The translations under genes were made by a program, and so were the position numbers. Below the pieces are notes generated by a model. That model worked only from the letters and a program-made list of their open reading frames with translations. It made no database searches and was not told where the DNA came from. A stretch of DNA of 20,000 nucleotides from Asterionella formosa (Eukaryota), in NCBI GenBank assembly GCA_002256025.1, contig NKIB01012462.1:58316-78315 (forward strand). Direction: 5' to 3'. Every line of letters begins with the position of its first letter. Positions within the stretch are counted from its first letter, which is position 1. This document shows, piece by piece, positions 5,319 through 16,707 of the stretch.

Positions 5319-6782
5319 TCAAACCTCGCCATCTCGCTCCATACGCTTTGCCATCCGTTTCAGTGCTTTCATGCCGAGATCTGCGGTCGAAACATAGGGT
5401 TCCCCTATCTCGCCTTCTTCAAAACTTTCGAATTGCTCCATTTTTGGAACAAAGTCACCGACATCTCCATCGTAGTAAACCTTATCACTGTTGCTATGAA
5501 TCCAATCATAGCCTTGATCATAGGCCAGCTCTTCCCCATCATCAAACGGCATTATATTTCCATCTTCGTCCAACTCCAACCCTCCAACATCTTCGGCCAT
5601 TTCATTATTTCGTTCCAACTTGACTCGCAACTCACCAACTCTCGTTTCACAGGCTTCTAGAATAATGGTCCAAAGGGCCTTGGTTCCCTCACCGGTAACA
5701 CTACTAATCTGAAGTGGCTGCCCTTCGGGCAGTCCGAGCTCCTCTCTAATGGTCTCCATACTCTTCTCCACTTCGTTTTTGCTCAGCTTGTCTATCTTGG
5801 TGGCCACCACGACAATCGGAACCCCAATATCATACAACGCCGCTAAAATAGCACGGTCATCGTCGGAAGGGACTCGTCTGGAATCAACCAGCAAAATACC
5901 AAGTGCCAATTCTTCTCGTTTGCTTAAATACCGTTCAGCAGCTTCTTGAACTGACTGCTGAATCTCTTTGGACAATTTCGCGTATCCAAATCCAGGCAAG
6001 TCGGCAAGACCTAGCAATGCCTTTTGTGTCCCCTTCATCGTTCGTTCCATAAGTGTGTACAAATTCACGCTAGCAGTAGCTCCCGGCGTTTTTCCAACGC
6101 GTGCTTCGTCGCTGCCGGATGGCACCAATCGGTTCAACAGACTGGATTTTCCAACATTGGAGCGTCCCAAAAATGCCACTTCAGGGACACCCAAACGGGG
6201 AGGAAGTCGATGGTCTAAATAGCTCCCCACAAACGTCATACCGGATGCAGAGGCTGGCTGGAACCGCTTCCATGCCAAGACACTTCGTTCCGCGTCCGAG
6301 AGCATATTTCTTGCCAAGGTCTTTCGGACAGGGGCAAGCTCTTCAAGGGGAGTACCAAGTTTGATTAATTCACGGCGACGTTTTTCGGCTTGTACGTTTT
6401 CTTTGGCATCCTTGGGGGACAGGACTTGCCAGGGCGGAGCACGAGAATTTTGACTGGGAAGTTGTATGTTTGGTTTTGCAGCACGTGCTTGTTGTTGGCG
6501 GGCTGATTTTTTGGGGTCGTAGTCTTCGTTGCGCTTGTCGTTCTTGCTCCTCGTCTTTTTCGGTTTGAGTGGGTTTCCTTTTTTATTAGTTGTTTTTGGT
6601 TTGTTGTTCTCGTTTTTGTTCTTGCCTATTGGTGGACCCAGGCCCATCAAGAGTTGAAGGGTGTTCGTAGCTGCTGGTCGACTAATCGGAGCGAATCCTT
6701 CAACGGAGCTGACCACGAGTAGTCCAGCTGTTGCAATAGCGCATAGCCGTCTACGGCGAGCAGTGCATTCCGTCGCTGGCAT
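5319..6782 (-). CDS. engB: EngB/YihA/YsxC-family ribosome biogenesis GTPase, predicted plastid-targeted, 487 aa, intronless
   Basis: G1 PEVAFLGRSNVGKSSLLN, ARVGKTPGAT (G2), DLPGFG (G3), TKIDK (G4) and ISS (G5). The N-terminus has a signal peptide ending VEG-FAP (ASAFAP-type). Confidence 0.93.
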   Translation of the reverse strand: MPATECTARRRRLCAIATAGLLVVSSVEGFAPISRPAATNTLQLLMGLGPPIGKNKNENNKPKTTNKKGNPLKPKKTRSKNDKRNEDYDPKKSARQQQARAAKPNIQLPSQNSRAPPWQVLSPKDAKENVQAEKRRRELIKLGTPLEELAPVRKTLARNMLSDAERSVLAWKRFQPASASGMTFVGSYLDHRLPPRLGVPEVAFLGRSNVGKSSLLNRLVPSGSDEARVGKTPGATASVNLYTLMERTMKGTQKALLGLADLPGFGYAKLSKEIQQSVQEAAERYLSKREELALGILLVDSRRVPSDDDRAILAALYDIGVPIVVVATKIDKLSKNEVEKSMETIREELGLPEGQPLQISSVTGEGTKALWTIILEACETRVGELRVKLERNNEMAEDVGGLELDEDGNIMPFDDGEELAYDQGYDWIHSNSDKVYYDGDVGDFVPKMEQFESFEEGEIGEPYVSTADLGMKALKRMAKRMERDGEV

Positions 6783-7333
6783 GTTTGCAAAGCAGTAGTA
6801 TTAGTAGTAGTAGAATAGTGCGTGTTCTTTTAGTGGATAGTGTTGAATCGAATGCGATACACTCGTGCACTATCGATGATCATGGTGGTGAAGATCAATT
6901 GAATATTATTCGACAAACGAGTTGGTGTCGCTCGCCTCAGCTCGTCCGATGGTACCTGGTACCTGCTACTCAGGAATGATACCGGTGTTCAGCTATAATT
7001 ACAAAACATATCATTCATATGTATGATTCGTAAATAAGTATGGGAACAAACTGGTAATACCTTCATGCAGCAGCATGTGAATATTTATCAACCTACCGGA
7101 ACTGGTAGCGGTTGGTAATGGGACTCTGCTTCATCCTCGTCTGGTGTTGCCATTCATCACGAAACAAATTGAAGCAATGGTCACCAATTGTGTCAGTCTG
7201 TTCATCTGTCGCTTTGCTTTATATTTATACATACATATGTATGGACGAGTTTGATCAGTTATGATCATATCGGTTACCGGAGCAGTACTGGTACCAGGGT
7301 AACAGGTATTTTATCAATCATGTTTATATGCCT

Positions 7334-7450: not shown

Positions 7451-7787
7451 TCAAACGAAATCATGAATGTGTATGTAGGAGTATATCCCATTTACGTGCG
7501 ATGAGTACCGGCAGGTACAGTACTAAGAAACACATCACCCATCATGAGCAAACGGTTTATATCCCAACATCATGATAAGGAGGAGATCTTACATCAAATC
7601 ATCCGAACAACAATAAACTGAATCATCGTCTGGAGACGGGTGATCCAACATTCTATAGTTGTTCAAATAACAGTACCAGGTACTGACAGTTCCATCTATA
7701 TACATGCACGACAATTCTAAAAACGTGACCACATCAGAGTCTACAAGACGATACATAACGCCTTTGTCCAAGAAAACAGTACGAACA

Positions 7788-8785
7788 ATGAGGACCACAA
7801 CAGCAGCATCCATCGCAATAGTAGGACTCATCATGGCCATGACGGTCACCAGCGTCGCATCCTTTACACCCTCCATCATCATGTCAATGAAGCGACAAAA
7901 GACTGTCTACCATGCAGAAAATGAAGACAAACTGGAAGCGGGTTCGCATGAAGAACTCATGTATACACTCGGAGTTAACCTAGCCCGACAACTTGGTGAC
8001 ATTCGACCTTTGATTGAAACCGGAGAAGAATTAAAGCTAGTCGCTAGAGGACTTGTGGATACCGTCGTTGGCCATTTGCCAGATGAGGAACAAATGATAC
8101 TTATTGCTAAGCGGGGCAAGGATGTTAATACGTTGATTGCTGCACGAGCGTAAGTTTATTTGTATACTGTCATGCGTGATGGGTGCATCATTCATCATGG
8201 TGGACGTCATAAAAAGTGTATCGGCGAAGGAGCACTAATCTCGCCTTTTTTGCAACACATTCACACAGGGACGCCATTCGCATCCAATTGGAAGCCACAG
8301 GACGCAGCATGCTGCAGGAAATGAAAGAAACAGAAGGGACGACACCCTTGGATGGGGGAGTGATCTTGCACGTCTTGGAGGCCAACCCTGATGGGCAACG
8401 TCCTACCAAGGGAAGCACTGTCAAGGTGGCCTATCACGGTACCTTGGCCGATGGCACCGTCTTTGATACCACCATGAACGAGGAGCCAGTCACATTCGCC
8501 CTGGGACAAGTCATTCCAGGATGGAGAACCGCACTGTTGAAGATGCACGAGGGGGAAACCGCAATGGTTGGCATTCCGCCAGAAGAAGCGTATGGACCAG
8601 AGGGAACTCCAGATGGGTTGATTCCGGGAGGGTCGACATTGTTTTTCAAGGTACAGTTGATACAGGTTATGACAGCAGCGATTGGAGGGGCGCCCACCTT
8701 GTTTGGAGGGGACGGCTTAAAGTTAAGCAAGGGAGAGAAATCTATGGGTTTGTTGGGGGCAGATGGTAAACCAATGATTAAGTAG
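7788..8785 (+). CDS. FKBP-type peptidyl-prolyl cis-trans isomerase with FkpA/Mip-like N-terminal domain, predicted plastid-targeted, join(7788..8149,8269..8785), 292 aa
   Basis: The FKBP domain reads PTKGSTVKVAYHGTLADGTVFD...FALGQVIPGW...IPPEEAYG...IPGGSTLFFKVQL. The N-domain has YTLGVNLARQL. Intron GTAAGT(8150)...CACAG(8268) joins the two ORFs in frame (ARA|DAIR). The presequence ends VAS-FTP. Confidence 0.92.
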
Positions 8786-9518
8786 GTGCTTCGCAATTTC
8801 AATAGGCATGGTTGAATCTTAATCCATAAATAGTTGTGTTCATGATCTGTCTCTTGCACTGATCGGGATAGAACAAAAGTTCCAGCAATATGGAGGGGAG
8901 GGGGGTGTCTATGACATGTGAACCAAGCCAGATGTTGCTTATACTAGAGATGCAAGTATACCAACTCACTTTACCTATATCTCTTATAAATAATAAGAGG
9001 TATGTTGAGTATTGCAAGCTACACTACATATGATGTATTGGGAAGTTCCTTTGTTGCCAAACTTTTCACCAGAGCTGGCCTTCTTCACATGATGGTTACT
9101 GCATGTCTCAAGTCAGTCATGTCAATTCATTTGTATGCCACCTCTCCCTTATGTTAGCAGCCCAACAGCTGCCTTAGCCCAACCATCAATCTCCACCAAA
9201 CTAGAAATAAGCGAAATATCATTTTGTTGCTACCTGTATGTAGGTGCAAAATAATACATAAATAACAACTAAATGTGAGGAGTGCAGCATTTCATTATTG
9301 GAAAAACTACATATGACCTACCGGTATACCGGTGTGCACTTACACAGAGGCAATCTACGACCAGTATTCCGGTACCTGGTAACTTCTCTACCAGGGACAC
9401 CTGTCATAGCGATACGCCGCTGCCATCATTTTTATTTTCTGTCGTATCATTTTTAGGACTGTCCATTCTATATTTCAGATCGAAGAAATACGAAAGGCTC
9501 AACAATACCGGTGCTGGC

Positions 9519-11076
9519 ATGGTACTTACCACTTTATTTCCCAACCCGACGCTCGCCTCGTTGACACTTCTCTTATTGCTGCAGACATGCTCTTCTTACA
9601 CTCCCGTGCGAGCCCATACGACTGGCTTTGCTTCGAAAGCAACGGAATTACGGGCAGCAGCCACGGCCATTCCGCTTCCATCGATCAAACGGGACGAAGA
9701 AAAAACAGATGCTCCAAAAATTGGAGTTTTGCTTCTCAATCTAGGAGGACCCGAAACAGGCGATGACGTTGAAGGTGAGAGATAGCGAGTTTCTCGTGAA
9801 AGCTGCCCCCAGCGAGTGTGTGACAGTACCGGTGGTCCTAACCAATACATGTGCAAAAACTCGCGTCGCAGGATTCCTCTTTAACTTGTTCGCCGATCCT
9901 GACATTATTCGATTGCCTGGACCTCTCTCGCCTTTGCAAAAAATCATCGCGCTATTCATTTCCAAGAGGAGAGCTCCCAAATCCCGGGCTGCATATGACT
10001 CCATCGGTGGCGGATCTCCCATTCTCAAGTACTCCAATGAACAAGCAAGGCTTCTGTGTGCATCGTTAAAAGAACGGTATGATCTGGACGTCAAACCCTA
10101 CATTGGCATGCGATACTGGCACCCCTTCACTGAAGAAGCTCTGCAGCAGATTCAAAAGGACGATATTAAGGCCCTTGTCATTCTGCCTCTCTACCCACAG
10201 TTTAGTATAAGCACGTCAGGATCGTCGCTCCGCGTGTTGCAAGAAGAATTCGCAAAGCATTCCGATCGCCTTGGCTTTGTCCATACCGTCGTGCCGTCAT
10301 GGTACGATCGACCTGGGTATGTAAAAGCAATTTCGGATTTGATTATGAAAGAACTTGATAGCTTTACACCGGAAGAACTTGCCGCCGCTGGCGACGACCC
10401 ATGTCCTCGTCACATCTTATTCAGTGCTCACGGGGTTCCACGGTCCTACATTGATGCTGGAGATCCATACAAAAGCCAGATTGAAGAATGCGTAAAGACT
10501 ATTACAGCAGCTCTTCCAGGAGAAGATCAAGGGGTCAAAGTGCACTTGAGTTACCAATCTCGTGTCGGTCCCATTGAATGGCTCCGACCTTACACCGACG
10601 ATGTTCTGCCGGAGTTGGGCCAAGCTGGAGTCAAAAACCTTGTGGTTGTCCCTATTTCGTTTGTGAGCGAACATATTGAAACACTGGAAGAGATCGATAT
10701 AGAATACCGAGAACTAGCAGAGGAGAGTGGGATTGAACATTGGAGACGATGTCCGGCCTTGAACACGGACGCTACCTTCATTTCAGATATGGCCGATATA
10801 GTGGCTGAAGCCCTAGCGGAACCCACGCAAACGGTCACAGAAGCTTGCGTTGCGAATAATTGTGGAGATTTCGAGCTGAACACTATCAACGATAGCTTGG
10901 GTATTAACTCTGCGGGAGTGGGAGGTGTTGGTGCAAAGGCTGAACTAATCAAGTCAAAGTTACAGGAGAAGGAACGAATAAATGGGCGTGTCGCGATGGC
11001 AGGAGTGCTAGCTACGTTGCTGTTGGAATTGCTGAGTGGGAAATCGTTGACTCATTTATTTGGAATCAATTATTGA
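9519..11076 (+). CDS. hemH: Ferrochelatase (protoporphyrin IX Fe chelatase), plastid type with C-terminal CAB/LHC motif, join(9519..9774,9872..11076), 486 aa
   Basis: Family motifs KIGVLLLNLGGPE, FLFNLFADPDII, IGGGSP, GMRYWHPFTEEA, LPLYPQFSISTSGSS, FSAHGVP, YQSRVGPIEWLRPYT and SFVSEHIETLEEIDIEY. Intron GTGAGA(9775)...GCAG(9871) is in frame. The presequence ends CSS-YTP and the C-terminus has ERINGRVAMAG. Confidence 0.96.
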
Positions 11077-11146: not shown

Positions 11147-12244
11147 TCAAATCTCATTTACCATATTTTCGACGGTTTCACCTAGTGAACTGAGAACATC
11201 AGGTGCTGTCATGGATCGTTTATGCAAATCATAAGCTCGCTTGGTTGCTTGCTTAGTAACACAGCAAGCAGACAAGCACGAGAGGAGACGATCCGTCGGT
11301 TTCCCATCTTGTGCGAGGATCTCGTTCCAGGCCATAAATGTACCTACTGTCCCGGCTAGAATATCTCCAAGACCACCACTCCGCTTTAATCCTCCTTCCT
11401 CCTCGCAAACAAGGGTTGCATCCACTTGCGTTGGACATGAAATAACATCAAGTGCTCCCTTCTGGATGACAATACCTGAAGTTACTGCCGCCAAATGTCC
11501 ATTATGGGCATCAAGCAATCGTTTGTATTCGATAACATTTGGGGTCAACACTACTTTATCGTAGCATTCAAAAATGCCTCGATTCTCAGGCAAAGTCAAT
11601 AGGAAGAGCGCATCCGCGTCAACGACCATTGATAGATTCATCTCGATACCAATCTTCATGATCTGTGCCGTGGCACGAAGCACCAGGGGGCATCTCCCCA
11701 GTCCAGGTCCAATCACCAATACATGCATTCGATCCATCATGGATGACACTTCCCTCGTCATTTTTTCAACAAGCTTTTCCTGTGCGAGTTGATCCTCCTG
11801 TTCCACGGCCAAGTCAAAGTCAGCAGCACAGTACACCCCAGCCACCATCAATTCAGGTGAATAACATTTGATGGGTGTAGTGGCCTCTTGAGCACAGAAT
11901 ACGTAACACAAATCGGATCCCACCTTCAAACTAGCCATACTGGCATAGTAAGGTGCCCCTGTGTATCGGGACGACCCACCGAGGACTCCGACTCGACCAC
12001 TGCTGCCCTTGTGGGAGCTCGCGGACAACGGAATGATGCATTTTGAAATCGCAACTGACTTGAAGTCTTTCCATCGTTTTGGAGATGATGTTGTCATTGA
12101 TGATGCAGAGCGTTGCGATGGCTTCCAGGCAGAAGCACCAGGAGCTAGCTGAAGGACTGAAGTGGCGGAGAGTAGCAAAATTGAAACGAAAGAAACTGTA
12201 CTATTGTTTCCTGCCTTTCGACCAATCGAAGGGCTCACTAGCAT
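11147..12244 (-). CDS. NAXD: ATP-dependent (S)-NAD(P)H-hydrate dehydratase (YjeF C-terminal/carbohydrate kinase family), 365 aa
   Basis: Motifs HKGSSGRVGVLGGSSRYTGAPYYA, IKCYSPELMV, VIGPGLGR, VVDADAL, VLTPNVIEY and GGLKRSGGLGDILAG. The N-terminal hydrophobic stretch ends ASA-WKP. Confidence 0.93.
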   Translation of the reverse strand: MLVSPSIGRKAGNNSTVSFVSILLLSATSVLQLAPGASAWKPSQRSASSMTTSSPKRWKDFKSVAISKCIIPLSASSHKGSSGRVGVLGGSSRYTGAPYYASMASLKVGSDLCYVFCAQEATTPIKCYSPELMVAGVYCAADFDLAVEQEDQLAQEKLVEKMTREVSSMMDRMHVLVIGPGLGRCPLVLRATAQIMKIGIEMNLSMVVDADALFLLTLPENRGIFECYDKVVLTPNVIEYKRLLDAHNGHLAAVTSGIVIQKGALDVISCPTQVDATLVCEEEGGLKRSGGLGDILAGTVGTFMAWNEILAQDGKPTDRLLSCLSACCVTKQATKRAYDLHKRSMTAPDVLSSLGETVENMVNEI

Positions 12245-13491
12245 ATCAAATCAATTCCAATGCATTCATGAGCCAAGGCCAAGGTAGGATAAAGGTGAAG
12301 CAAGAGGGTCGTGATGATTCGAGCCTGTGTTTGTTTGTGCACTGACATGAGGGGTGATGTAACAGTGACTGTCAGTGGCAAATCCTAAGTGCGTTTCCGA
12401 CTTTGCTTCTCTGCATCTTCTATGATATAAGGCGTTTGTTCACAAAGAAGAAAATAACAGTTTTTTGTGTTCATGCAATTACGGTAGTCTAATGTCGGTT
12501 TACCGTATTGTCAGGAGTAGTTTTACTTCATCAATAAATAAAGCAAGTAAGCATTGAAGCGGACAGGTTTCTTTGGCGAATAATGTAGACTACCGGTAGG
12601 GTACCTAATACACGAAGCAAAATACTTTTACTTACTAGGTACGGAGACCCTGTTACCGGTACTCTGCTTTGTTTCCCTCATAGTATGAGAGCAGTCTTTT
12701 ACTGCGACTCCCAGATGTATCATACCAGCCAATCATTGATTGTCCCTCGGAAAAGCCATCTGCCCTGGACATATGTGCCGTTGATTTCAGCTGTACCACA
12801 TCATCTATCCAATCAAGGTTGCTACCTTTATGCCACACTGTCGGAATACCTGTATGTTGGATACTTTTACATATTGGGCTCGTCACACATTGCATATACC
12901 GTAATGAATAGGTGGATGGTGGAGTACTCCTATATAATAAGAAAGGACCCATGGTATTGGCACATTGCTGATATGTTGTTCAATATTGCTAAACAGTCGT
13001 GCGTGGCGGGAGGAACAATTTTGCGCGCCATTCAAATCCAGACCGCCGGGACAAAGGCTGATGATTGCGAACATGTGCTCCCAAATCAAGGATGCAGCGC
13101 AGCCTTTCATCTGGACTGGTACCCGTATCTTAGTCTGTCTACTTTTGAATCCTACGGAACATCTGTCGCTTTCGTATATATAGTTTATTCGTCAACTATA
13201 TGATGATATGTATGGACACACTTTTCTTAAAAGAATGGATAATATTATATGTGGTCTACATCGACTGTCGGTAGTATTAATGCTACTTACAGAAATTATA
13301 TTGAGCCTACATATAGTTGTAGAATGAGCAGTACAATACTATCATCCTGGATTCTTTGCCATTTTCGACCTGTTCCTTGCGGGTGATGTCGGCATTTCAC
13401 TGGCCCTTATTCACTATAATTCGTCCTGCTCATCGTTGTATCTCAAATCACTTTCCATCTAAGCTCCCTTTGTCGTAGCTGAACTTTTAGA

Positions 13492-15874
13492 ATGATCAGG
13501 GGAGCTTACATGATTGCCTTGCTCGTGGCCCTCCTTTCGGTACAAGAATCCCTGAGTTTCACTCAGGTCAGATTCCAGCATCTTGTGCGAGTCCCATCGC
13601 AGTTCAGAAATCGGGTTTTCGCGGCTGAGCCTGATATTGAGACCACTTCCACTGTCCCTCCTGATCCAGAAGAACTAGATGATGAAGATGATCTCACTGA
13701 AGCTCCGCTAGTAATAAAGACCAAGCGCTCTCTGTACGAAATCCTTCGAGCACCTCGCAATGCAACAAAGGCAGAACTCAAGGTCCAATACGTTGCGTTG
13801 GCGCGAGAGACACACCCTGACGCACTCATTGGAACCAACAGTAGCATCGACACGTCAGCTTCGTTTTCCGAGGTTGCTGAGGCATGGAAAATTTTATCGA
13901 ACCCAAGGGATAGGCGACGCTACGATCGCTCCCTTCAGACAGAAGCCTTTGCTGGCAACATTGAAGTCATTGCTGTCAAAGTTAGCGAACAAGCTGGGCC
14001 ATCCATGATGAAGATGTTTGAAAAGGTGGCCGTTCCTTTTTTGAGACGTACAGCCGTGACTGCGGTGGCATCTTTCTCAGCCGCAGCTGGGGATATTATA
14101 AGATCCAATGGAACAAAGATCGACTTTGGGCATGCCGTTTCGATGGCAGTAAAGGCAGGAGAAGCAGCTGGACGGATTGTTGATGGTATGGAGGCATTGG
14201 AAAAGAACAAGGAACTTGAAGAGAGGTAATTGGGAATTATCTGACGATGAATGCGACTTTGCTGGACAAGAAACTAACTCATCGCGTTTGCAGGGCAATG
14301 CAGGAACAGTCCCAGGTAATCATTCAAGATGTGAGCAAGCTGCCCGAGTTCGTTGATAATGGCAAGAATTTATCTGCCACTTCTGCATTTAGGTAATTAT
14401 ACTCTTTCTAGAAATGAATGAGAGACATGAGCGTTGAACTTACTGATTGTATTACAGGGCCCTTCTTGAGGCGGAGCAAGGCAGGCAGTTGGAGGACAAC
14501 CAACCGGAAGTGAGCGACTCTGGTCTGATTTCACCTTCAATTTATGAATCCATGTGAGTAAGCACTATTTTGTAGCAGAAACTTTTTCGATAACATTTCA
14601 CTGACCTTTATTCCTGTTTGAAGAATATTGGATGAAACTCTGCGAGGCAATACTGTACCGATCAGGCCACCTGAAAAACCTTCATCCGCACTTCAAATGA
14701 TGTAAGTAATCAATTTTCTGAAAAGGAATGTTTTCTGTATGAGCAGTGATCTTAAACATTGCATTTCAGGACCGTGGATGACGCGGAACGGACCATGGAG
14801 ATCAAGGGCAATCTATCGGGCGCTATTGACGAGCTTATGGATTTGACTTCAGCCTATGAAAAAAGGTGAGTTTAACGTACGCAGGTATTCGTGTCTGCAG
14901 GTGTTTTGATGATAACCTTATGACCAGACTAACTGATCTTTTCACAGTGCCCTGGACGAAACGGTTCATGCTAAGAGGGTACAGGCTGAGCTTTCGGAAG
15001 TGATTGATGAACTTATGAAATCAACCTCCGTGAAGGAAACGAAGTGAGTTGATACCAGCTGTTAAAAAGCGGTAAATTTGGCGCTCGATGTACTGACTTT
15101 TCCTTATTGCAGGGGCTTGGACAAAACGGAACGTGCCATCGAGGTCCAATCCAAGCTTTTGGGAGTGATTGATGAGCTTGTTGACGAAACTGAACGAGCC
15201 ATGGAGGTCCAGGCCAAACTTTCGGAGGTTATTGATGAGTTGATGAAAGCATCTCATGACGAGAGGACAGCGTGAGTAAATTCTCAACGGTGACTGAAGG
15301 TATTCTTCAGTGAACGAATGCTTACATGGTGTTATACAGCGCATCAGACATATATGAATCTGTCACGGAGGTTCAGCCTCAGCTTTCTGTAGTGAAGGCG
15401 GAGTCCGAGAATTCTCCGTCGTCGACGACGATGATGTGAGTAGATGCGCGTGTACTAATGGTTATGGCAATGAATTGCATGAAATTTTTATCTTACTGTT
15501 TGGTTTTTTTTTGTTTAGGTTTGCCGAGGATTCGGTGCGGGTCAAGGACATGCAGAGAAAACTTTCGGAAGTTATTGAAGAACTAATCAGCTCAGCTTCG
15601 GAAATCGAAATGACGTGAGTAGAACGACCACGCTGCCCACTGATGTGAATAATGTAACTTTTCACTGATACTTCTCCTACAGAGCATTGGACGAAAGGAA
15701 AAGAGCCATGGAGGCTCAGGCTAAACTATCTGACGTGATTGATGGCCTCCTTAAATCCACTTCGACACGAACTAAGGCGTGAGTAAAAGTAGCGAATAAT
15801 GGTATGACCATGGATATGTATTTCCTAATTTGTCTTGTTTCAGGGTCGTGAAACGAGCGAAATTTAGGCCTTGA
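13492..15874 (+). CDS. J-domain (DnaJ class C) protein with exon-encoded helical repeats, 11 exons, 558 aa: join(13492..14225,14294..14392,14458..14553,14624..14701,14770..14865,14948..15043,15113..15271,15340..15435,15519..15614,15683..15778,15844..15874)
   Basis: The J domain reads SLYEIL...LARETHPD...FSEVAEAWKILSNPRDRRRYD and the presequence ends SLS-FTQ. Ten GT-AG introns of 65-83 nt (donors GTAATT x2, GTAAGT, GTGAGT x7) splice into one uninterrupted 1677-nt frame ending ...VVKRAKFRP*. Confidence 0.85.
14294..15778 (+). repeat. Tandem exon+intron duplication array (unit ~165 nt) encoding a ~32-aa repeat, consensus ALDETERAMEVQAKLSEVIDELMKSxS
   Basis: Exon lengths are 99, 96, 78, 96, 96, 159, 96, 96 and 96 nt. 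The recurrent DNA motif is ctttcgga[ag]gt[gt]attga[ta]ga. Confidence 0.88.
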
Positions 15875-15930
15875 GCTGTAGTGCAGACCATTTCAAGTGA
15901 ACAAATCGTGCATTGAAATAACTCAGCAAC

Positions 15931-16707
15931 TTAGTAAGCAATACCGTATGCAGGCTCCTTCTTTGTTTTGACTTTCTTCTTGTATTCCGCCGGCGTTTGA
16001 AATTTCTTCCCTTGCTTCCATATGCCTCGCTTTCGTTGCTTAGCCAATTCAATTTTCTTCTCTAGCAGCTCGCGTTTGTTATCATACTCGGCTCCACCTC
16101 CAATATACAAAGTTGCAAGACCGTTTTCTGCCAGTTTCACGCTCACGTCTTGCTTGGTAAATGGTAAGAAGCCAGGAGTAGTAACTTTGGCAACGGCCCG
16201 ATTATATTGATCCTTCCGGAGCAACTTGACTCGAACTACTTTTCCATCCACCATGCCTCGAGTATAATCCGTGGCTTCTTTGCCATATGGCTGTGCTGGG
16301 TTTCCGAAATGAGCTATCTCAGGACAGTCAACTCCATATATGCGAATGCTCATTGTAGATTCTGAAATTTTTCCGGTGTAACCAGATCCAATAGATAGTG
16401 GGTAGTATGGATAATGTCGAACGCGGAAAGTGTCGCCATCGACAATCTTTTCCACTCTACCATATATGACTTTTTTATATTTAAAAAGCTTTGAAGGGAT
16501 GTCATCTGCTGTTTGATACTAAATCAATATAAGTTGATGTGTGTGGAGGTTTCTGGGTTAGAGTTTCAAAGGCATTGCCGAAAAGGGTCAACTAGAAACG
16601 CTACTCACTTGCTGGAAAAAGGGCATACTATGAACAGGGTCGGGATCGGCAAAGAATGTTGTCAAGGTGAAGATCACAGCAGGTAGAGCTTGTGTCAAAA
16701 GGCGCAT
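15931..16707 (-). CDS. Staphylococcal nuclease (SNase/thermonuclease)-domain protein, LCL3-like, complement(join(15931..16518,16609..16707)), 228 aa
   Basis: Motifs YQTADDIP...IYGRVEKIVDGDTFRVRH, IRIYGVDCPE, QPYGKEA, KDQYNRAVA and AKQRKRGIW. The minus-strand intron GTGAGT(16608)...TTTAG(16519) links an upstream exon MRLLTQALPAVIFTLTTFFADPDPVHSMPFFQQ in frame. Confidence 0.9.

Follow-up and report, generated by a model that had tools for sequence, protein, structure and literature searches.

A class-C J-protein gene of Asterionella formosa with a repeat tail probably rebuilt by intron-spanning tandem duplication

Gene structure and transcripts

We analysed a stretch of 20,000 nt from Asterionella formosa (contig NKIB01012462.1, positions 58,316 to 78,315 of the forward strand; hereafter, the window). 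A gene of 11 exons lies at 13492-15874 on the plus strand. A script that follows the reading frame gave a product of 558 amino acids (aa), with a presequence, a J domain and a tail encoded by short exons. All ten introns are GT..AG, in phase 2 and 65-83 nt long (68, 65, 70, 68, 82, 69, 68, 83, 68 and 65 nt from intron 1 to intron 10), and all ten donors read GTAA or GTGA. Internal exons E2 to E10 measure 99, 96, 78, 96, 96, 159, 96, 96 and 96 nt, six of the nine being of 96 nt. This structure matched exactly, in exon sizes, intron size range and phase, the model drawn in an earlier note made from the sequence alone. No upstream ATG was seen by eye between 13391 and 13492. The parts of the gene are as follows.

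13492-14225, +, exon 1 (734 nt): presequence, J domain and family-conserved helical region; ends ...KELEE(R)
13492-13626 (end approximate), +, N-terminal presequence, from the sequence and a crude family scan
13732-13926, +, J domain, aa 81-145 (Pfam PF00226)
13813-13821, +, HPD tripeptide ('THPDAL'), read from the sequence
14226-14293, +, intron 1 (68 nt, phase 2, GTAATT..CAG): ancestral, common to relatives, whose exon-1 open reading frames (ORFs) end at the same place
14294-14392, +, E2 (99 nt): degenerate unit at the ancestral exon-2-head position
14393-14457, +, intron 2 (65 nt, phase 2)
14458-14553, +, E3 (96 nt): degenerate, P/G/S-rich, net charge -5
14554-14623, +, intron 3 (70 nt, phase 2)
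14624-14701, +, E4 (78 nt): degenerate unit, in-register LDET.R kept
14702-14769, +, intron 4 (68 nt, phase 2)
14770-14865, +, E5 (96 nt): clear repeat copy
14866-14947, +, intron 5 (82 nt, phase 2)
14948-15043, +, E6 (96 nt): clear repeat copy, 0 aa differences among natural variants
15044-15112, +, intron 6 (69 nt, phase 2)
15113-15271, +, E7 (159 nt = 63 + 96): two copies, E7a and E7b
15272-15339, +, intron 7 (68 nt, phase 2)
15340-15435, +, E8 (96 nt): degenerate, in-register EVQ.QLS kept; most variable exon among variants
15436-15518, +, intron 8 (83 nt, phase 2)
15519-15614, +, E9 (96 nt): clear repeat copy
15615-15682, +, intron 9 (68 nt, phase 2): retained in some natural transcripts (511-aa products)
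15683-15778, +, E10 (96 nt): clear repeat copy
15779-15843, +, intron 10 (65 nt, phase 2): retained in some natural transcripts (543-aa products)
15844-15874, +, E11 (31 nt): basic C-terminal decapeptide (A)VVKRAKFRP, then stop TGA

The DnaJ domain (PF00226) was detected at aa 81-145 with an E-value of 1.7e-15 and 57.3 bits (cut-off 27.8), and was confirmed on P0025, a 552-aa database protein identical to the window product from Met7. The H, P and D of the HPD tripeptide were invariant in alignment A1. These findings show that the gene encodes a J-domain protein with HPD, as the earlier note had stated. No other Pfam family passed the threshold for the whole protein or for any of the nine repeat exons (listing at E<=0.1). 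Class C J-proteins have no G/F region, zinc-finger or DnaJ C-terminal domain, which separates them from classes A and B. With DnaJ as the sole Pfam family passing the threshold, the window product is classed on its domain content as a class-C (type III) J-protein.

The presequence consists of a hydrophobic core (MIRGAYMIALLVALLSV), followed by ESLS-F and a basic/hydroxylated stretch (..LLSVQESLS-F-TQVRF..R..R..). In the available part of PMC4329603, diatom plastid presequences are described as a signal peptide, a cleavage site followed by F at +1 (the 'ASAFAP' motif) and a basic/hydroxylated transit peptide. A crude regular-expression scan (not ASAFind) of the 94 family members whose N-termini were complete found a hydrophobic core followed by [ASGC]F in 61. 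The plastid targeting proposed earlier is plausible on the basis of this bipartite plastid-type motif.

Expression of the gene was evident from public data. The stretch or part of it was contained in 20 runs from 16 studies, mostly lake and freshwater metatranscriptomes; 19 of the runs were recorded as RNA. Joints were judged on assembled contigs of four RNA runs (X1, X5, X6 and X7), for which 15 joints were listed. A single X1 contig of 2595 nt, starting at 13391, had 0 mismatches and all ten joints. X5, a polyA run from a separate study, also contained 10 of 10 joints, as did X7, a 95-99% variant in which four joints had allelic letters. Run X6 contained seven of the ten joints, together with low-depth unspliced pieces over introns 9 (15591-15707) and 10 (15728-15863). 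Altogether, all ten junctions were bridged by RNA contigs in three studies. The earlier note had allowed that transcripts might end near 14230, or that the repeat exons might have a separate transcript; since the contigs bridge the joints, both questions were answered in favour of the gene model, in which the J exon is fused to the repeat exons.

Natural variants were taken from a cluster of near-identical database proteins (90% identity; 15 of its 23 members listed). Four of the 15 were full length (552 aa from Met7), and 11 ended exactly at an exon-intron border: three after E1 (including the partial P0021), one after E2 (272 aa), one after E3 (304 aa), one after E4 (P0030), two after E9 (511 aa) and three after E10 (543 aa). 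At least one of the forms ending after E1 derives from a 28-kb, presumably genomic, contig.

The variants and joints bear on the suggestion in the earlier note that exons are variably included. If the gene were a cassette-exon array, different sets of its symmetric 2-2 exons would be skipped, so that isoforms would differ in helix number. Any skip would keep the frame because the nine internal exons are multiples of 3 flanked by introns of the same phase, and exon skipping is reported for a diatom in the available text of PMC5859163. However, none of the 15 joints listed in the four RNA runs skipped an exon, in contigs that may hide rare isoforms. None of the 15 listed proteins (of 23) lacked an internal exon or differed in exon number, which is weak evidence, as contigs suppress rare isoforms. 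Variable inclusion thus found no support, and we regard such an array as very unlikely.

The shortened proteins raise another alternative, in which intron retention ends translation at module borders and yields proteins with 0-9 modules, or without the basic decapeptide. A retained intron reads xxG|TAA or xxG|TGA, with a stop at the exon end, because all ten introns are in phase 2 and start with GTRA. Natural transcripts have yielded database proteins whose ends fall exactly after E2, E3, E4, E9 and E10, introns 9 and 10 are spanned by unspliced pieces in X6, and the available text of PMC5859163 describes intron retention as prominent in Phaeodactylum. On the other hand, an in-frame stop is the automatic outcome of phase 2 with a GTRAGT donor, and the same contigs are expected from partly spliced pre-mRNA or from DNA in total-RNA libraries. 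Upstream premature stops would normally trigger decay, and the proposal is built on transcript sequences. Judged from contigs, the retained forms may be either regulated products or simply unspliced RNA. We consider a functional series of truncated proteins improbable. Its extension, in which the array is a built-in length dial and regulated retention of a chosen intron sets the number of acidic helices or drops the decapeptide, appears highly improbable; if it were true, a new repeat domain would tune the number of client or scaffold molecules per Hsp70 recruiter.

Two irregularities were seen in the RNA contigs. An X6 contig (depth 9) starts in intron 6 at 15083 and joins 15252 to 15326, with ends CT..AC and 73 nt skipped; the next 111 nt (to 15436) have 8 mismatches, and the canonical intron-7 joint is unused. 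The contig may represent a divergent variant, antisense splicing or an error of assembly. In the X7 variant (13544-16100), no letter differs across 680 nt of exon 1, but E8 (97 nt) has 8 differences, E6 has 4 and the 3′ region has 7. Such very uneven divergence along one gene might come from recombination, from conversion among the repeats or from a contig that is chimeric.

Two-exon relatives and the family

A word-index search with exon 1 returned 20 proteins, four of them true relatives (exon-1 identity: P0001, 100%; P0002, 69%; P0003, 43%; P0004, 46%), the other 16 sharing the J domain only. The source of P0003 is Dactyliosolen fragilissimus (diatom, MMETSP). An exhaustive phmmer search with P0025 gave 3255 library proteins at E<=1e-3 and 32 at E<=1e-30. 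Good matches spanned residues ~70-239 only, and many ORFs stopped exactly at 239, where exon 1 ends; apart from P0047 and P0088, two 99%-identical fragments of the same gene, no library entry matched the repeat region. Exon 1 beyond the J domain was conserved across the family as a 'VAVPFLRRT...' helical region, ..VAVPFLRRTAVT..AGRxVDxMELxEKSxELExR (alignments A1, A2 and A4). From these sequence comparisons the proteins appear to be a large unnamed J-protein family, mostly unlabelled, whose labelled members come from diatom (MMETSP) transcriptomes. Literature searches on diatom plastid J-proteins found no description of a family with a J domain, a 'PFLRR' region and a coiled coil.

In full-length relatives, '..ELE.R' is followed by one helix, e.g. 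'ALDETERSIEVHANLSAVINKR' in P0002 and 'ALEETERAMEVQSRLRDVIDRR' in P0195, and then by a conserved 'RLxLxLxTPxSxLSSxEA' motif and a coiled coil of ~240 aa. A metagenome scan with P0002 as query found nothing; one with alignment A2 confirmed 212 loci, of which 80 were kept, and three of these 80 (L001-L003) were family members, the other 77 matching the J domain only. In genomic loci L001 and L002, exon 1 is followed by a stop, and after a short gap a single long frame opens with 'AL(K/..)E...KLSEV..'; the P0195 ORF begins within the intron and covers the C-terminal domain in full. L003 is uninterrupted and would be a transcript or an intron-less gene. Window intron 1 is a phase-2 intron directly after ..ELE.R, and the same break occurs in L001 and L002. 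Because of this layout and the P0195 ORF, the ancestral gene was taken to have had two exons separated by the same phase-2 intron. Relatives have two exons, the window gene 11.

The two-exon family (P0002, P0003) resembles the window gene in presequence style, in the J domain with HPD, in the 'VAVPFLRRT...' region and in the position and phase of intron 1. It differs in having one copy of the helix, followed by the motif and the ~240-aa basic coiled coil in one exon, whereas the window gene has ten short exons and no coiled-coil domain. The 'RLxLxLxTPxSxLSSxEA' motif and the long coiled-coil domain were absent from the window protein, and the gene ends 56 nt before a staphylococcal-nuclease (SNase) gene. 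The comparison thus indicates a point that the earlier note had missed: the array stands in place of a conserved C-terminal domain present in relatives.

An AlphaFold model of P0002 (45-sequence alignment; mean predicted local distance difference test score, pLDDT, 82; predicted template modelling score 0.59) has one predicted helix at residues 195-256, across the exon junction, and long helices thereafter. A profile search of the PDB gave 70 matches, all J domains over profile positions ~40-143. In a Foldseek search of the PDB, the P0002 model had no match at E<=0.001, the rows obtained being J domains and weak coiled coils, and ESM Atlas searches with the P0002 C-terminal part and the window tail gave no usable match.

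An exon-1 tree, from which P0050, P0054, P0055, P0062 and P0202 were left out (trimming motif not found), grouped the window type with the P0002 type and four further pairs in a single clade (95/91 support). No P0002-type gene was found elsewhere in the window. P0028 (window-type exon 1), P0043 (P0002-type exon 1) and P0204 (P0002-type exon 2) each list a 28283-nt ENA contig, and P0198 and P0203 both list a contig of 25968 nt. These shared listings hint that window-type and P0002-type genes are linked in one genome. In another relative, P0049 (a 472-aa single ORF), an exon-2-type coiled coil runs into an exon-1-type J region without a presequence. P0049 and the exon-1 ORF P0206 both list a 2680-nt JGI contig, which points to a head-to-tail tandem arrangement of the family gene in a different organism.

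Origin of the repeat tail

The 32-residue repeat was found in six clear copies in five exons (E5, E6, E7a, E7b, E9 and E10), with off-diagonal tblastn matches among repeat exons reaching E 6e-10. In-register similarity was weak in E8 and E4, where 15 and 37 of 1000 shuffles, respectively, scored as high. E2 and E3 had no similarity to the repeat profile (239/1000 and 511/1000 shuffles scored as high). Of the nine paralogous exons proposed in the earlier note, five thus stood as clear repeats and E4 and E8 as weak relics, whereas E2 and E3 were not recognisable. The tail has a net charge of -22 and an isoelectric point (pI) of 4.63, in contrast to +5 and 9.26 for the exon-2 part of P0002, and its hydrophobic pattern is kept in register across the five full copies. 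The acidic amphipathic helices without a named domain that had been proposed were borne out by this charge and hydrophobic pattern and by the Pfam result above.

DNA identity among the clear copies was 53-74% (48% for E9-E10). It was highest, at 74%, for E7a/E7b, which on sequence grounds are the youngest pair, E7 containing a 21-codon (63-nt) duplication inside the exon. An origin of E7 by intron loss was rejected, the extra 63 nt being this internal duplication. Among the five full copies the pooled proportion of synonymous differences (pS) was 0.66, near saturation, vs 0.36 for nonsynonymous differences (pN); the pairs are not independent and each unit has 31 codons, so the estimate is noisy, which tells against leaning on the ratio. 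No introns could be aligned between copies (pairwise identity 24-66%, confined to splice signals), as expected if the copies are old. These findings indicate that the copies are old and, as judged from pN and pS, that their protein sequence is partly conserved.

A profile of the six clear copies gave a single match in P0002 (aa 229-248), covering the initial 20 residues of its exon 2 (independent E-value 1.7e-7). Among 177 other fetched proteins, eight had a single match in the equivalent place (six of the P0002 type; P0063 and P0053 weakly), and none of the 177 had two or more copies of the unit. Similarity of the unit to ancestral exon 2 stops after 'VID', at unit residue 20. The final 12 residues of the unit ('ELMKSTSVKETK' with its variants) match the 12 that close exon 1 ('ELLEKSQELEKR', likewise with variants). 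The exon-1 end was the best window for this match in five of six related exon-1 sequences (rank 1 of 217-252), and the p-value from column shuffles was 0.0005. With moderate confidence, as the segment compared is short, these data suggest that the unit joins exon sequence that flanked the parental intron on either side. The tandem duplication of an exon-plus-intron unit proposed in the earlier note was supported, and was refined to a segment spanning the ancestral intron.

The following course of events would account for the gene. Ancestral exon 1 would have encoded the presequence, the J domain and the conserved helical region and been followed by the phase-2 intron; ancestral exon 2 would have encoded a helix ('ALDETERAMEVQ..L..VI.') at its start and then the ~240-aa basic coiled-coil domain. 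A segment comprising ~35 nt before the exon 1 end, the whole intron and ~61 nt of exon 2 may then have been duplicated in many tandem rounds. Because a duplicated intron carries ready-made splice sites, each duplicate would bring its own acceptor and its own donor in the same phase and produce a symmetric, in-frame exon of 96 nt, encoding one 32-residue acidic amphipathic helix made of an exon-2 head and an exon-1 tail. One extra 63-nt duplication would have occurred within E7, four units (E2-E4 and E8) would have decayed to P/G/S-rich linkers, and the ancestral C-terminal domain would have been lost from the window gene. In the resulting protein, the J domain, judged by its HPD, would recruit and activate an Hsp70, and the new acidic helical-repeat tail would replace the ancestral basic domain as a client- or scaffold-binding module. 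As a whole, the earlier reading was partly supported: J domain, gene model, duplication and acidic helices stood, and variable exon inclusion did not. The best explanation, which we consider likely, is that the gene is a lineage-specific expressed paralogue whose tail was rebuilt by intron-spanning tandem duplication, with loss of the ancestral domain.

The main alternative to a functional new tail is that a redundant duplicate lost its functional C-terminal domain and that the tail is a tolerated slippage product without a role, so that only the J-domain part would matter, if anything does. Four of ten units are degenerate, an array-bearing relative was not found, and all aa differences among the full-length variants lie in the tail (up to 14, vs 0 in exon 1; 5 in E8). 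However, E2, E6 and E10 were also invariant among the variants, and ten introns with intact splice sites and one open frame have been kept despite saturated synonymous divergence among the units. In addition, the good copies have a pN roughly half their pS, the hydrophobic pattern stays in register in the five full copies, and RNA runs from several studies contain the spliced mRNA. A neutral or decaying tail therefore seems unlikely to us.

Several observations weigh against a tail rebuilt by intron-spanning duplication and retained for function. The differences between tail and exon 1 among the variants also fit relaxed constraint. The head-plus-tail origin rests on 12 residues, and the window's own exon-1 end ranks 3 of 228. 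The kinship of E2 and E3 to the units is not demonstrable and is argued from their size, phase and position alone. Relatives with an array were not found in data whose genomic ORF callers miss 96-nt exons, and the exon layout of the closest relatives (P0203/P0205, P0048/P0211 and P0198/P0207) is not visible in ORF data. Branching within the closest clade was not resolved, so that the P0002 type may be either a paralogue in the same genome or an orthologue in a different one. A plastid location and an Hsp70 partner are predictions for the window protein, and the presequence scan was a regular expression. A single-sequence AlphaFold model of the window protein was unreliable (mean pLDDT 43) and was kept out of the fold searches. 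Prediction of a complex of two tail copies (P0025 residues 325-552) gave no answer (score 0.00) and speaks neither for nor against self-association.

Duplication across an intron is already known. In Arabidopsis TOUCH3, a whole pre-existing intron was duplicated with flanking exon parts (Knowles & McLysaght 2006, as cited in the available part of PMC4974935). As described there, TOUCH3 resembles the window gene in that the tandem duplicate spans the whole intron and exon sequence on both sides, splice sites and phase being carried along; the window gene differs in its approximately nine rounds, in neighbours with 0-1 introns and in loss of the original downstream domain. The window gene is thus a clear case in which a class-C J-protein has been reshaped by a known process, tandem exon-intron duplication. 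Chlamydomonas CDJ2, a chloroplast class-C J-protein, delivers VIPP1 to HSP70B, according to the available text of bioRxiv 10.1101/2025.08.22.671721. It probably resembles the window protein in working logic only, with a presumably organelle-targeted J domain and a non-canonical helical C-terminal part that would select the client; this likeness is one of description.

The finding alters no general principle. It offers a well-resolved case in which a new repeat domain and nine new introns would have arisen together from a single intron-spanning tandem duplication, with both two-exon relatives and the derived form available for comparison and in intron-poor genomic surroundings. It also brings to attention a large uncharacterised J-protein family with plastid-type presequences, part of it from diatoms. 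The replacement of a basic coiled coil by an acidic helical repeat as the presumed client-binding domain may provide an entry point to the clients of diatom organellar Hsp70.

Neighbouring genes

The earlier note had described the neighbours as intron-poor, and the open frames of the GTPase, FKBP, ferrochelatase, NAD(P)HX dehydratase and SNase genes fit 0-1 introns each. The other features of the window are as follows.

5319-6800, -, GTPase (MMR_HSR1), 0-1 introns by open frames
7671-8785, +, FKBP-type isomerase, one apparent intron by open frames
9279-11076, +, ferrochelatase (PF00762, E 3.5e-102), apparently one intron
11147-12250, -, NAD(P)H-hydrate dehydratase, 0-1 introns by open frames
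12589-13203, +, open frame of 204 codons (no start requirement) just upstream of the J-protein 5′ untranslated region (UTR); may be non-coding
15931-16518, -, SNase homologue (PF00565, E 3.6e-23)

The SNase gene is convergent with the J-protein gene, and their stop codons are separated by 15875-15930. The 3′ UTRs of the two genes must overlap, because RNA contigs cross both. The C-terminal extension of the ferrochelatase ends in a hydrophobic '..GRVAMAGVLATLLLELLSG..' stretch, which we take to resemble the membrane-anchoring light-harvesting-type motif of plastid ferrochelatases.

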